Shown here one piece after another: positions 23,883 to 40,466 of a DNA stretch of 64,000 nucleotides; positions within the stretch are counted from its first letter, which is position 1, and every line of letters starts with the position of its first letter. The translations under genes and the position numbers were made by a program. The notes under the pieces were generated by a model. That model saw nothing but the letters and a program-made list of their open reading frames with translations, did no database searches and was not told the DNA's origin. Source of the DNA: Betaproteobacteria bacterium (GTDB taxonomy: Bacteria > Pseudomonadota > Gammaproteobacteria > Burkholderiales > SG8-41); the NCBI GenBank assembly GCA_016202605.1, contig JACQOJ010000074.1, positions 4,499 through 68,498 on the forward strand, in the 5' to 3' direction.

Positions 23883-24329
23883 TTACGCCGCGGTGCTCAC
23901 GTCCACCCGGACATCCGGCGTCGCAACTGCGACGCTGCCGTAGAGTGGTCACCGGCCCTTGAACTTGTCGATGAGCGCGGAACTTTGCGCCTCCGTCACG
24001 CCCGCGAGCCGGAACCGCAGATGCACGGAGTTGAAAACGGAGACGTCTCGCCGCACCGGATTGCTGCGATCGAGCGTGCCGGCAATCTCCACCTCGACCC
24101 CGCGCAACGGAACCTGGTCGGCCCTGGCAAAGGATTGCAGGAGCTCCACCCCGCAGGCGGCGATGCCGGTGAGGAAAAGCTCGGCGGGCGTGACCGCCTC
24201 ACCGGGGCAGCCATTCTGGACCGGGCCGTCGACAATGAAGTGGTGGTTGCGGGTGTTGCACAGCACCCGCCCGAAGGTGTCGGTCGAGCGCGCGTTGACT
24301 GCGTAGCTCCGAACTTCGCCTTGTGCCAT
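23883..24329 (-). CDS. OsmC/Ohr-like protein, predicted selenoprotein (Sec at TGA 23949-23951)
   Basis: TPAELFLTGIAAC (first Cys). In-frame readthrough gives KGR-U-PLYGSVAVATPDVRVDVSTAA-TAA, matching the second C-P motif of the OsmC family. Confidence 0.85.
23918..23935 (-). promoter_or_regulatory. SECIS-like hairpin of the OsmC-like gene
   Basis: GCGUCGC-AGUU-GCGACGC, beginning 13 nt after the UGA. Confidence 0.7.
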
Positions 24330-24352
24330 TTCATTTCCCCCATCGCTTTTCT

Positions 24353-24424
24353 GTGTCATGCCCGCGAAGGCGGGCATCCAACGTGCCGACCGCAATTAGA
24401 TTCCCGACTGCTCGGGAATGACAC
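24353..24424. repeat. REP-like palindrome (GTCATGCCCG/GTCATTCCCG...CGGGAATGAC family)
   Basis: GTGTCATGCCCGCGAAGGCGGGCATCCAA...ATTCCCG...CGGGAATGACAC. The same family recurs in at least eight clusters. Confidence 0.8.
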
Positions 24425-34565: not shown

Positions 34566-35222
34566 TCATACAGGCACCGAGGCGCGCACCATGCCCTCGG
34601 GATGAATCTGCCGCTTCGCGATGTCCTTCAACCGGGTTTCGATCTCGGCCGGCGGCAGCGTGAGCCCTTCGACGAGCGTGCCGATCATCGCTTCGGCACG
34701 GACGCGCAACGCCTCCGGCTCGAGCTGGCGGATGGGGTTCGGGGTCTCCGCGATGATCACGTACGGGCAACCCTGCGTGGACGACATGCGCCGCGCGAAC
34801 TGCGCGAAGGTATCGGTGACGATCATCGCCGTCGGGATGCCGCGGGCTTCAAGAGCGGGGGTGACGTGGCTACACCACGTCGTGCACGAGCCTCAGTCGC
34901 CGGTCGCGGTGATCGCCACGTCGACGCGGCTCGCGAAATTGTCGAGCGTCTCGCGCATGGTATCGAGCAGTTTGCCGGTGCGAATCGGCAGTTCGCGCAC
35001 CGGCTGCTCGATGACCAGCGCCTTCAGGCGATAGCGTTCCTCGAGCAGGGTCCCCACCGCCTTGAGGATGTGCAGCGCCGAGGGCCGCCAGTTCGGCAGC
35101 AGCCCCACCACCTTGCCCTCCAGCGTCGCGGGGCGCGGCGCAAGCGTGCCGCTCGTCTCCGCCTCGTCCAGGTAAACGGGAAGAGGCGAAACCATCGTGA
35201 GGCGCATCATGGACTCGGACAT
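34566..35222 (-). CDS. UGSC-family thioredoxin-like predicted selenoprotein (Sec at TGA 34893-34895)
   Basis: ORFs 34893..35222 and 34566..34826 are one frame joined by ATGD-U-GSCTTWCSHVTPALEARGIPTAMIV. 218 aa. AAGGAG RBS. Confidence 0.9.
34863..34881 (-). promoter_or_regulatory. SECIS-like hairpin of the UGSC gene
   Basis: GACGUGG-UGUAG-CCACGUC, beginning 11 nt after the UGA. Confidence 0.72.
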
Positions 35223-35473: not shown

Positions 35474-36379
35474 TCACGCCTTCGTGTTCGCGTAATGGTC
35501 CTTGCACTCCGCTTCGCGCCCGCGCACGACTCTCATGCCTGACAGCGGCCCGCGCGTTTCGGTGACCGCCGTATGCTGTCCCTCGGAGTGGTGATCGTCA
35601 TAAAAATAGATCACGACCCAATCGCGCACCTTGTCCAGCCGGTGCGCCTGCGCGGTGTTCGAATAAAGAGCGGTAAAGTGCCACACCGCACGCTTCGTAT
35701 GCAATACCGGCAGCCATGACTCTCCCCCGGGGTTGAAGCGGCGCGGCGCGATGGTCGGGAGCTTTCCTGCCTCTGCCTTCTCGCGGTACTCCCGGTCCAC
35801 ATCGAGGAGCAGCGCGACCGAAGGACCGTCCGCAAGCCGCGCCGCGCGGGGCGGAGGCACCCGCGTGCGCCTGAGCATCGTGGCGAGCGCGCCGCGAATC
35901 GCCGCCGCCCGCCGCGGCCCCATGCCCGGAACACGCTCCAGCCGCCCGTCGTGCGCCGCCGTTTCCAGCGCCTCGAGCGTATCGACGTGCAGATCGTCGT
36001 GAATGCGTTCGGCAAGACCGGGGCCGATCGCCGGAACGGACTGGAAAAGCGTGACCGCGTCGACCGTCCCGCGCAGGCGCTCGAGCTGGCTCCAGCGGCC
36101 GGTGATGAGTATCTCGGCGATCGCCGAGGCGATCCCGCGCCCGATCCGCGGCAGCGCCTCCAGGCCCTCGGCGCCCTTCTCGTCGAACACGGACCGAACG
36201 CCTTGCCCGAGCTGCACGATCTCCGCCGCGGCATTGCGGTAGGCATTGACGCGGAACGGATTTGCGCCCTGCACCTCGAGCAGGGTCGCCGTCTCGCGCA
36301 GCATGTCCGCAATCCGGACGTTTTCCGCGCGCGGGCCGGTGCGCGGTTGATTCACGGGAGTGCCAATTATTGTGACCAC
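35474..36379 (-). CDS. Helix-hairpin-helix DNA-binding protein with DNA polymerase X N-terminal-like domain (start uncertain)
   Basis: GANPFRVNAYRNAA, LPRIGRGIA, VPAIGPGLA, VPGMGPRRA. No polymerase catalytic or PHP domain visible. Confidence 0.85.
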   Translation of the reverse strand: MVTIIGTPVNQPRTGPRAENVRIADMLRETATLLEVQGANPFRVNAYRNAAAEIVQLGQGVRSVFDEKGAEGLEALPRIGRGIASAIAEILITGRWSQLERLRGTVDAVTLFQSVPAIGPGLAERIHDDLHVDTLEALETAAHDGRLERVPGMGPRRAAAIRGALATMLRRTRVPPPRAARLADGPSVALLLDVDREYREKAEAGKLPTIAPRRFNPGGESWLPVLHTKRAVWHFTALYSNTAQAHRLDKVRDWVVIYFYDDHHSEGQHTAVTETRGPLSGMRVVRGREAECKDHYANTKA

Positions 36380-38360: not shown

Positions 38361-38966
38361 TCACGGCCGCAAACCGTTCCCCCATCCGCCTTCGAAAAAG
38401 CGCTCGGCAAGCGGTTTTCTGCCGCGCGCGCGCAGTTCCTTCGCCTTTGTTTCATCGTCGAGGATGTCGGGCTCGGCCTGGTAGCCGACGGCGATCATCG
38501 ACATCGGCGCGTACTCGGCGGGAACTTCGAATGCCGCGCGCGCTTTCTCGACATCGAATCCTCCCATCTGGTGCGCGACCAATCCCAGCGCGAGCGCCTG
38601 CAGCGCGATGGACAAACTCGCCGCACCGGTGTCGTGCTGCGTCCAGCGATTGGGTTTGCCGTTATGCTGGAAAAGGCTGCCGGCGCACGAGAGCATGAGC
38701 AACGGCACGTTCTTTACCCATTTCCGGTTATTTTCCGACAGGCAGTCGAAGGCTTTCTGCCAGCCCTCGGGATCCCGCTTTCGCTCCCAGATCAGATAGC
38801 GCCACGGTTCGTCGCCGTTGCACGAGGGCGCCCACCTCCCCGCCTCGAGCAAGGTCACCAGTTGCTCGCGCGTGACCTCGCGCGCGGGGTCGAAGGCGCG
38901 TGGACTCCACCGCCGCGCCAGCAAATCGTGAATGGGAACACTCGTCGTCGCTCGTCGCTCCTGCAT
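38361..38966 (-). CDS. Nitroreductase family protein
   Basis: RRWSPRAF, EAGRWAPSCNGDEPWR, HQMGGFD. Confidence 0.93.
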   Translation of the reverse strand: MQERRATTSVPIHDLLARRWSPRAFDPAREVTREQLVTLLEAGRWAPSCNGDEPWRYLIWERKRDPEGWQKAFDCLSENNRKWVKNVPLLMLSCAGSLFQHNGKPNRWTQHDTGAASLSIALQALALGLVAHQMGGFDVEKARAAFEVPAEYAPMSMIAVGYQAEPDILDDETKAKELRARGRKPLAERFFEGGWGNGLRP

Positions 38967-39002
38967 TTCGGACTTCCTTTGTTGAGTAGTTCTAGGTTCA
39001 AG

Positions 39003-39057
39003 GTAGGTCGGCAATCCTTTGCCAACAATCGCCGGCGGCATGGGAATACCGCCCTAC
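39003..39057. repeat. GTAG-type REP element, copy 1
   Basis: GTAGGTCGGCAATCC...GGGAATACCGCCCTAC, near-identical to 45523-45577. Confidence 0.8.
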
Positions 39058-39089: not shown

Positions 39090-39512
39090 TCATTCTTTGA
39101 CCTTCGCCTTGTCCAGGGCGAGCGGTCCGGCGCCGAACGCCATCACGTAGAGCAGCCCGCCGATCATGGCGACATTCTTCATGAAATGGTTGAGCTGGTT
39201 GCCGTAGTGCGCGGCATCGGCCGCCCAGAAATCGTGAAAGACGAGGGTCGCGGGAATCATGAACACGATCAGCAGCAATGCGCCCCAGCGCGCCTTCCAG
39301 CCGATGACAAGCATGATCGCGCCCGCCAGCTCGAGGACGATCGCCCCCACCAGCAGGACCTCCGCCATCGGCATGCCCTTGCTCGCCATATAACCCGCCG
39401 TGCCGGCGAAGTTCGTGACCTTGCCGAAACCGGACTTCAGGAAAATCAGCGCCATCAGGATGCGTCCCGCCAGGGGACCATAACGTTTCGCCGCTTCGCA
39501 CAGTCGCTCCAT
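39090..39512 (-). CDS. DoxX family membrane protein
   Basis: GRILMALIF..SG..K, FHDFW, HFMKNVAMIGGLL..G.G..ALD. AAGGAGG RBS. Confidence 0.93.
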   Translation of the reverse strand: MERLCEAAKRYGPLAGRILMALIFLKSGFGKVTNFAGTAGYMASKGMPMAEVLLVGAIVLELAGAIMLVIGWKARWGALLLIVFMIPATLVFHDFWAADAAHYGNQLNHFMKNVAMIGGLLYVMAFGAGPLALDKAKVKE

Positions 39513-39521
39513 GTTGCCTCC

Positions 39522-40466
39522 TTACTCCATAGGTACGTCGATCGCAATCTCGTGTCCGGCGGCAATCCACGCCTCCAGACCGCCTTCGAGCGGGCGCACG
39601 CGTTTGAACCCCTTGTCCATCAACAGGCGGGCGACACGCGCCGCGCTCGCTTCATTCGGTCAACTGCAGTACACCACCACGTCGTGGTCCGGGGGCACCG
39701 CGGCAAGACTGATCCCGGGAACGTTGATGTCCACCGCAACCGCACCCGGAATGCGACGCGGATCGAGCCGGCGCGCCATGCCCGACCGGGCATCAAGTAT
39801 CACCAGTTCAGCTCCACTTCGCATCAGGTCGTGCAACTCCCCGACGCTGATGCGGACCATCCGCAGAAAGCGAATGAGGAGGTAGCGCTCCAACCCCTTG
39901 ATCCCGGCGTAGGCCGCAATGATACCCGCGAGCAGCATCAGCGCGCCGGTGCCCGTGTTCACCAGCCACGCGAGGGCCTGCTCCACTTCGGAGTGAAAAA
40001 ACATCCCGGCAACCACCGGCACCGCGGCCCACAGCAACGCACCCGCGGAGCTGTAGCCCGCGAATCGCCCGATGTCGAGACGCATCGTGCCGGCCAGCGG
40101 CGGCGCCACCGTCGCGAACCCCGGAATGAACTTCGCCACCACGAGCGACGGGGCACCCCAACGCTCGAAAATGTTCTCCGTCTGCTTGACGCACGAGTCC
40201 GGTTCGATCGCTATGCGGCAGAGCGTGCGCAGGATGCGGTATCCGTGGCGCCGGCCGGCGACGAACCACAGCGCATCGCCGAGCAACGATGCCGCGACCG
40301 CCGTCACGAGCACCCCGGCCATGGCGAGTTCTCCCTGCTGCACGAACGCTCCGGCCACCACGAGCACCGGGATCGCCGGCACCGGCAGCCCGGCCTGGGT
40401 GAGGAACACGTTCACGAACACCAGCGTCAATCCATGCTGGGCGAGGAGGTTCGTCATTTCCTGCAT
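39522..40466 (-). CDS. DedA/VTT-rhodanese fusion, predicted selenoprotein (Sec at TGA 39660-39662)
   Basis: DedA motifs (GLPVP, AKFIPG) and rhodanese motifs (ILDAR, IPGA). Readthrough VVYCS-U-PNEASAARVARLLMDKGFKRVRPLEGGLEAW...PME-TAA completes the rhodanese fold and ends 9 nt before the doxX start. Confidence 0.9.
39627..39650 (-). promoter_or_regulatory. SECIS-like hairpin of the DedA-rhodanese gene
   Basis: GCGGC-GCGU-GUCGC core with a bulged GCG/CGC extension. Loop GU at +23/+24 after the UGA. Confidence 0.55.

Follow-up and report, generated by a model that had tools for sequence, protein, structure and literature searches.

A DedA–rhodanese fusion gene with a conserved in-frame TGA encodes a predicted selenoprotein

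Introduction

Proteins that join a DedA (VTT, PF09335) domain to a rhodanese domain (PF00581) have been noted before, with a function described as unclear (PMC10127716), and Todor et al. counted rhodanese fusions within a COG0586 subfamily (PMC10127716). PMC12893004 likewise notes the DedA–rhodanese fusion PA1209 of P. aeruginosa, a known cysteine-type protein, as being of unclear function. Cysteine-type fusions, annotated as "DedA family protein/thiosulfate sulfurtransferase GlpE", have the same domain order as the protein described here, read YCxCP in the rhodanese loop and are 37–51% identical to it (a range that excludes PA1209). They differ from the present protein in that here the second cysteine is replaced by a predicted selenocysteine (Sec), and a putative SECIS element would fix the codons behind it. 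The DedA core is also common to the COG0586 flippases, such as YghB/YqjA and UptA. Two UptA models scored 34.6 of 300 and 37.9 of 250 bits on the fusion, which has the pair Cys83-x8-Cys92 as an extra feature.

Among described selenoprotein families, the best NCBIfam match is NF041203 (E 3e-19), or rhodanese_LYCAU, also listed as rhodanese-like form 3 and COG0607 form 2 (TKB26178.1). Its active site reads YCAUPNE in the supplement to PMC12013277, compared with YCSUPNE here, and both are predicted selenoproteins. The C-x-U motif is thus shared, but the fusion scores 68.8 of 115 bits and its relatives 21–79, below the curated cut-off. NF041203 is a stand-alone single domain of ≈130–150 residues, with an N-terminus that by eye is hydrophobic and signal-peptide-like, whereas the fusion has an N-terminal VTT domain with a cysteine pair of its own in the DedA part, probably faces the cytoplasm, and has hosts among the Betaproteobacteria, Acidobacteriota and Methylomirabilota. 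We considered 86 short matches as a stand-alone form and rejected them, as the 53 that were read appear to be fragments from the C-terminal end of the fusion. A second described family, TsoB (NF045694), is listed in Table 1 of PMC13188914 as a selenoprotein in which a rhodanese is joined to a DsbD-like portion. It differs in its partner domain and in its Sec motif, UxxxxU, with two Sec residues; its model gave no match to the fusion at E 0.01, and relatives reached ≈20 of 805 bits.

In mycobacteria, DoxX acts in a membrane complex together with SodA and SseA, the latter a predicted thiol oxidoreductase (PMC6930017). This complex serves here as an analogy; at the present locus doxX is the next gene. 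SseA is a rhodanese and, to our knowledge, a separate protein with neither a DedA domain nor Sec.

No DedA/VTT protein appears among the 119 families in Table 1 of a 2026 review (PMC13188914), and a word search for DedA, VTT or SNARE in PMC2864759 and in PMC12013277 with its four supplements gave no hit. In the full-text literature that was searched, which included few subscription papers, we found none joining a selenoprotein with a rhodanese and DedA, or with a VTT domain. Deng et al. in 2026 reportedly screened 44,000 groundwater genomes for selenoproteins, and their supplements may list a DedA–rhodanese family. An earlier note on this DNA had presented the protein as new to experiment. Its C-x-U-P-N-E site had already been catalogued (TKB26178.1) and the cysteine fusion is known (PA1209), so that what stands of the novelty is the combination: a DedA fusion with Sec, absent from the catalogues examined. 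On the comparisons below, the fusion is very likely a real, widespread and mis-annotated selenoprotein, in which a known Sec site occurs in an architecture absent from those catalogues.

Results

The 64,000-nucleotide stretch of betaproteobacterial DNA analyzed here (the window) carries the DedA(VTT)–rhodanese fusion gene at 39522..40466 on the minus strand, running from 40466 to 39522; the strand had not been given in the earlier note. That note had described an ORF halting at VVVYCS-TGA, and this is what translation produced: with table 11 the product is 268 residues long and ends in VVVYCS. Reading through the in-frame TGA at codon 269 (39660..39662, minus strand), the predicted Sec269, adds 45 residues past U and gives a protein of 314 residues with LEGGLEAW at 293–300. 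The new TAA stop (39524–39522) overlaps the ribosome-binding site of doxX, as had also been stated: the two share AA of AAGGAGG (stop and site together 39517..39524, minus strand), which ends 4 nt upstream of the doxX ATG at 39512. We looked for a sigma-70-like promoter and found none.

Pfam recognized only VTT/DedA in the truncated 268-residue product. In the read-through product, it placed VTT at residues 30–155 (40002..40379, minus strand; PF09335, E 5e-12, 46.8 bits against a cut-off of 33.9), followed by rhodanese at residues 208–302 (39561..39845, minus strand; PF00581, E 6e-11, 43.1 bits against 22.2), so that both domains of a DedA–rhodanese fusion lie above cut-off and in order. For the relative P0004, Atlas clusters have the same PF09335 and PF00581 make-up at 0.97–0.98. 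An AlphaFold2 model of the fusion, built on a 68-row alignment, had a mean pLDDT of 88 and a pTM of 0.77, and its C-terminal part resembled rhodaneses, with GlpE matched at Z 15.2 and an rmsd of 2.0 across 103 residues. When the whole model was searched, the solved structures that matched spanned the rhodanese domain alone and none covered the DedA part. A single-sequence model of the relative L024 had a pLDDT of 44 and was discarded.

The TGA codon was bridged by contigs from sequencing runs X2 and X3, with no alternative letter at that position, although this does not count as independent support because both runs are possibly the source of this DNA. Summed contig depth over 39615–39662 was ≈1,000–1,600 in runs X1–X3, compared with 24–52 across most of the gene. 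The rise over the SECIS came through many short foreign contigs, consistent with community members sharing that DNA nearly letter for letter.

The aligned codon was then compared in three sets of homologous loci. Of the best 120 protein matches, 116 (including the window's own) end at Y-C-[S/T/N], or 115 of 119 with that one excluded, and four are full-length with Cys. Gene callers thus cut the fusion at the UGA, and the truncated records include ones named "VTT domain-containing protein" by NCBI. In the best 80 of 490 confirmed GTDB loci, the aligned codon is TGA in 49, TGC in 26 and TGT in 5; none has TAA or TAG, and the reading frame continues with P-[NS]-[ED] in all 80. The cysteine homologues among them read YCxCP[NS][ED], which bears out the YCxCPNE motif that the earlier note had given for such fusions. 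The TGA records carry the labels Betaproteobacteria/Burkholderiales, Acidobacteriota and Methylomirabilota, and many of the bacteria that keep the codon are uncultured inhabitants of soil and groundwater. Among 301 genomes sampled evenly from the order, 53 contained the fusion. The codon was read in 30 of the 52 other than this genome, giving 12 TGA and 18 Cys, and the remaining 22 fusions have no internal stop. From metagenomes, 80 loci were fetched, including one close cysteine relative, and the 79 that cover the codon have TGA in 78 and TGC in one. The search for TGA orthologues that had been proposed therefore returned many (49/80 GTDB, 12/29 order-sample loci compared also for the SECIS, and 78/79 metagenome), in sets that may overlap in part and were not purged against each other, and with counts that, like those below for hosts, silent sites, trees, cysteines in close genes and neighbors, include the unpublished genomes G031 (L038) and/or G285 (L113), so that omitting either shifts each count by one.

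An alternative is that the TGA is a true stop, arising from a nonsense mutation or a sequencing error, or ending a functional 268-residue DedA protein with a dead half-rhodanese. This would agree with the databases, which annotate the 268-residue form. It would not explain why the break is always TGA and never TAA or TAG in the 49, 12 and 78 loci of the three sets, or why the TGA aligns with Cys and a conserved frame continues behind it. The UGA is also conserved in frame at this cysteine position in other organisms, as expected of a Sec codon. A TGA flagged in genome G255 turned out to be the normal stop of that gene and not Sec.

Two trees (a quick IQ-TREE run with 85 rows and FastTree with 114 rows) required five changes between Sec and Cys labels, at least three of them on strong branches, and both nested cysteine rows within the Sec clade of the window. 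A single origin of the Sec form in the fusion is neither shown nor excluded by these trees. The TGC gene L136, with DNA of the P0005 type, lies inside the Sec clade and keeps the 15-base hairpin core described below, and likely represents a recent change from Sec to Cys. Two loci titled "uncultured Streptomycetaceae" (L014 and L016) fall inside the betaproteobacterial clade of the tree and are probably from mislabelled or mixed bins.

The hairpin that the earlier note had described behind the UGA, with GU of its loop at +23/+24, is present, and these positions hold when numbering starts at the base next to the UGA. The predicted bacterial SECIS (39627..39644, minus strand) reads GCGGCG-CGUGU-CGCCCGC from +16 to +33, with a stem of +16..+21 against +27..+33 containing one bulged base, and the loop CGUGU at +22..+26. 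There are four stacked pairs and two more beyond the bulge, the loop starts after 21 nt, and the folding energy is -11.5 to -13.1 kcal/mol. PMC13188914 gives as limits for a bSECIS a loop of 3–9 nt with G within its first two bases, a stem of 4–16 bp, a distance of 16–37 nt from the UGA and an MFE of no more than -7.5 kcal/mol, and the fusion hairpin falls within all of these. Folding energy was nevertheless rejected as evidence for a SECIS, as it was not significant (z of 0.0, 0.76, 1.33 and -1.42 for four lengths, the last being 103 nt). A loose hairpin filter passed 3,697 of the 47,393 TGA triplets in the genome (7.8%). On its own the hairpin is no better than chance, and its support comes from comparison rather than from folding. 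Rfam gave no match in the 64-kb window.

That comparison was made at silent sites. Arg277, in the hairpin loop, is encoded by CGT in 61 of 62 TGA genes, compared with CGT at 53 of 1,005 Arg codons upstream. At six further conserved Arg positions that lie outside the hairpin, T occurs in 0 to 10 of the TGA genes. Across the 62 TGA genes, 57 variable silent sites gave 1,596 pairs, which were ranked by covariation. The stem pair +21:+27 ranked first, being paired in 62/62 (GC in 28, CG in 34), and +18:+30 ranked second, with 60/62; the third-ranked pair reached 77% and the mean was 43%. On the tree, the +21:+27 swap amounts to one change and +18:+30 to five to seven. Among 31 cysteine genes, the same positions pair in 16 and 12, respectively. 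The same 15 hairpin bases recur in 12/12 order-sample TGA genes, down to 46% protein identity, compared with 0/17 cysteine genes, and in 77 of 78 metagenome TGA genes, the last one being cut by a contig end. Constrained and co-varying silent sites behind the TGA argue further against a true stop.

The genome carries selA, selB and tRNA-Sec (77.7 bits), all on contig C48. No selD was found above cut-off in its assembly, which is 74% complete; four of four same-family genomes have selD, each copy with one in-frame TGA. In the GTDB set, SelA was found in 44 of 49 TGA hosts compared with 5 of 31 cysteine hosts, and the five TGA hosts lacking it all have a tRNA-Sec match, four of them strong and one at 48.8 bits (cut-off 47). 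In the order sample, SelB was found in 11 of 13 TGA genomes compared with 18 of 40 others, and one TGA genome lacking a SelB match (G290) carries a SelB wing domain along with selA and tRNA-Sec. These host counts, like the neighbor counts below, overstate the association and are given without a P value because related genomes are not independent. Neither selA, selB nor tRNA-Sec was found in G135, a genome of the same genus that is rated ≈100% complete and has a TGA fusion. The loss of one contig would account for this, as all three genes lie on a single 12.6-kb contig in the present genome. G135 (loci L098 and L131) carries a TGA-containing selD.

The selD missing here and the selABC missing in G135 fit a true stop, but the enrichment of TGA hosts for SelA and SelB does not, and we consider that explanation highly improbable. 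The G135 result would also fit a UGA read as Trp or Cys through a changed code or a leaky stop, with no Sec machinery involved. TGA, however, ends ordinary genes of the window (e.g. at 38361 and 40531), all non-TGA loci that were read have Cys at the aligned position, and SelA tracks the TGA form, making such decoding extremely improbable. Even taken together, the explanations with no Sec at all are very improbable, and the pseudogene and changed-code readings were rejected on the TGA-only break, the conserved frame and the association with SelA. The earlier note had named a TGA with no orthologues and a lack of Sec machinery as what would refute its selenoprotein proposal; both fail, since orthologues are numerous and the Sec genes are present, and the proposal is strongly supported. 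From these comparisons we put the probability that TGA269 is decoded as selenocysteine, with SelB binding the hairpin and Sec-tRNA reading the UGA, at roughly 0.97.

Other genes of this genome may also encode selenoproteins. In the window, a UGSC-family candidate at 34566–35222 (minus strand) reads GD-U-GSC, with a hairpin loop G at +20 (PF24696, E 1e-38; NF041046, 101 of 125 bits), and an OsmC-like candidate at 23883–24395 (minus strand) reads KGR-U-PLYGS, with a hairpin (PF02566, E 2e-11; NF041052, 31.7 of 95 bits). A genome-wide scan for TGA on codon usage alone was too noisy, and adding the hairpin filter recovered plausible selenoproteins. More candidates with TGA plus hairpin occur on contigs C14, C96, C97, C119, C154, C73, C145, C48, C30 and C6; they comprise five more copies of G-[DG]-U-GSC together with TPV-U-PNC, CPT-U-LRN, QPG-U-SSC, WTG-U-IAG, RVI-U-PAP, MSIGF-U-LLT and EEHA-U-MTL. 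From these motifs, the genome looks rich in selenoproteins. The window also encodes, at 35474–36379 (minus strand), a helix-hairpin-helix protein (HHH_8, HHH_5) that is similar to the N-terminal region of DNA polymerase X and has an unrecognized C-terminal part.

In the rhodanese loop of the fusion, which reads YCSUPNE, Cys267 (39666..39668, minus strand) is present in 81 of 81 close genes, and C-x-C/U is near invariant among homologues. When the sequence is aligned with those of Sud (1qxn) and NoxA-3 (6pfz), their canonical loop cysteine lines up with Cys267. Sec269 is therefore the second residue of C-x-U and not the canonical nucleophile, and the idea that Sec is the catalytic residue was rejected. 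GlpE/PspE-type loops have six residues. The fusion shares with that type the rhodanese fold and the catalytic cysteine as first residue of the loop, but its loop is two residues longer, as it also is relative to those of Sud and NoxA-3, and the GlpE model scores 19.2 of 102 bits. Position 272 is Glu or Asp in 106 of 149 distant representatives.

These features bear on a possible role as a sulfur/selenium transferase, as the earlier note had inferred. In such a protein Cys267 would carry a persulfide or perselenide, Sec269 would speed its loading or release, and the DedA part would import or pass on an oxyanion of a chalcogen, for example thiosulfate or selenite. The intact canonical cysteine in a rhodanese fold is in keeping with such a role. 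The longer loop and the low GlpE score (19 of 102 bits) speak against it, and the acidic residue at 272 would disfavor an anionic substrate, leaving the transferase possible but doubtful. We also looked in the literature for the identity of the selenite-linked dedA of C. metallidurans and did not find it.

The DedA domain has conserved cysteines of its own. Cys83 and Cys92 (40191..40220, minus strand), in a basic loop, are found in 50/50 Sec and 31/31 cysteine genes, in 142 and 141 of the 149 distant representatives, respectively, and in neither of the other two DedA-like genes of this genome. Two of the eight representatives without Cys83 or Cys92 also lack C-x-C, and at least four full-length representatives have lost C-x-C and kept both Cys83 and Cys92; the loss of the two pairs is thus, at most, loosely linked. 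Counts of Lys and Arg were seven in residues 71–104, five in 190–207 and zero in 43–50 and 157–172. By the positive-inside rule, the basic clusters at 71–104 and 190–207 would place both cysteine sets toward the cytoplasm, and we infer that Cys83/Cys92 and the C-S-U loop share that side.

Proton-driven flipping of UndP has been tied by Todor et al. to charged residues, namely YghB Glu39 and Asp51 in re-entrant helix 1 and Arg130 and Arg136 in helix 2 (PMC10127716). Correspondence to YghB numbering was made by motif. Compared with the canonical DedA protein of this genome (contig C55), the fusion has lost the aspartate of the PGDSLL motif and, in RFxPxxR, the second arginine: Glu becomes Thr23, at a position that is Glu in 34 of the 50 Sec genes, Asp becomes hydrophobic near 32, the first Arg becomes Lys112 and the second Ala/Ser118. 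The fusion thus lacks the full set of acidic helix 1 and basic helix 2 residues of the COG0586 UndP flippases. Q24, P28, P30 and P33 (each in 80/81, one row being cut), together with D64 and K112, are invariant in the 81 close genes. The earlier note had spoken of a DedA transporter domain. The fold family was right, but two charged residues used in UndP flipping are missing, and the absence of residues matching YghB Asp51 and Arg136 argues against the known proton-driven UndP flipping.

The four near-invariant thiol and selenol ligands Cys83, Cys92, Cys267 and Sec269 might instead jointly coordinate a soft metal or metalloid, or act as a redox sensor, and thereby gate lipid flipping or ion transport by the DedA part, with no turnover at Sec. 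Several Sec-containing metal-handling proteins are listed in Table 1 of PMC13188914, and the DedA core retains D64 and K112. We regard such a switch as unlikely: the missing YghB Asp51 and Arg136 equivalents tell against proton-driven UndP flipping, and metal-resistance genes were absent from the neighbor clusters scanned (15 of 32, each through a member).

The next gene, doxX (39090..39512, minus strand; PF07681), is likely co-transcribed with the fusion gene, and the third gene encodes a nitroreductase (38361..39041, minus strand; PF00881), whose true start is probably a later ATG; terminator-like sites follow it near 38401–38424. Among TGA loci of the betaproteobacterial clade, 8 of 15 have doxX nearby and 11 of 15 a nitroreductase gene; among the metagenome loci the figures are 39/79 and 16/79. 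Seven families that act in quinone, electrophile and thiol stress recur beside betaproteobacterial TGA loci: pirin, DoxX, nitroreductase, WrbA, a GST, a LigB/DOPA dioxygenase and a KefB/C-like channel. At least one of them occurs near 14/15 GTDB, 68/79 metagenome and 10/12 order-sample TGA loci, compared with 5/31 and 3/17 cysteine loci and none of the 34 TGA loci in the Acidobacteriota-rich clade, in counts for which query proteins came from betaproteobacterial loci, flank lengths differ and shared descent inflates the totals. Sulfur-metabolism genes were absent from the 32 most recurrent neighbor clusters, of which 15 were scanned through a member, a further point against the transferase.

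The Acidobacteriota TGA loci (L022–L077) often lie amid kdsD/kdsC-like, pyrG-like and tat-like housekeeping genes, pyrG and tat being named by eye, with the kdsD/kdsC-like and pyrG-like neighbors on the opposite strand to the TGA gene. A small exported-looking ORF lies directly behind the TGA gene in nine of these loci.

Discussion

The reading that we favor for function, at about even odds, is that of an inner-membrane selenoprotein whose C-S-U loop would be a thiol/selenol redox centre passing electrons or sulfane sulfur to the DedA cysteine pair. Cys267 and Sec269 would cycle between the selenol/thiol state and a selenenylsulfide, or a persulfide/perselenide, and Cys83 and Cys92, on the same cytoplasmic side, would resolve or receive. 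The protein would serve a response to quinone, electrophile or thiol stress together with DoxX, nitroreductase, pirin, WrbA, GST and the KefB/C-like channel. Sec makes the centres of selenoenzymes faster or less prone to over-oxidation, and here too it would speed the redox centre or raise its resistance to over-oxidation. In a related family of stand-alone rhodaneses, a form with U-x-U has been reported (PMC1976440). This U-x-U relative, the near-invariant C-x-C/U and Cys83/Cys92, the basic segments, the stress-related neighbors and the DoxX–SseA precedent are the grounds for the redox reading.

A more far-reaching idea, which we consider improbable, is a membrane selenol relay: the DedA fold would have given up UndP flipping, and Sec269/Cys267 with Cys83/Cys92 would couple selenium or sulfane-sulfur chemistry to passage through the membrane.

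The four conserved Cys/Sec residues open the link between DedA and rhodanese, called unclear in PMC10127716, to direct experiment. The Sec and Cys versions that occur in nature, L136 among them, allow the contribution of Sec to be tested cleanly, and strains that can be cultured, e.g. C. metallidurans, carry Cys versions. If the relay is true, the fusion would be the first DedA protein to contain selenocysteine and a candidate for the ill-defined route by which selenite enters bacteria. It would then also be a hidden selenoprotein that is common among bacteria of soil and groundwater.
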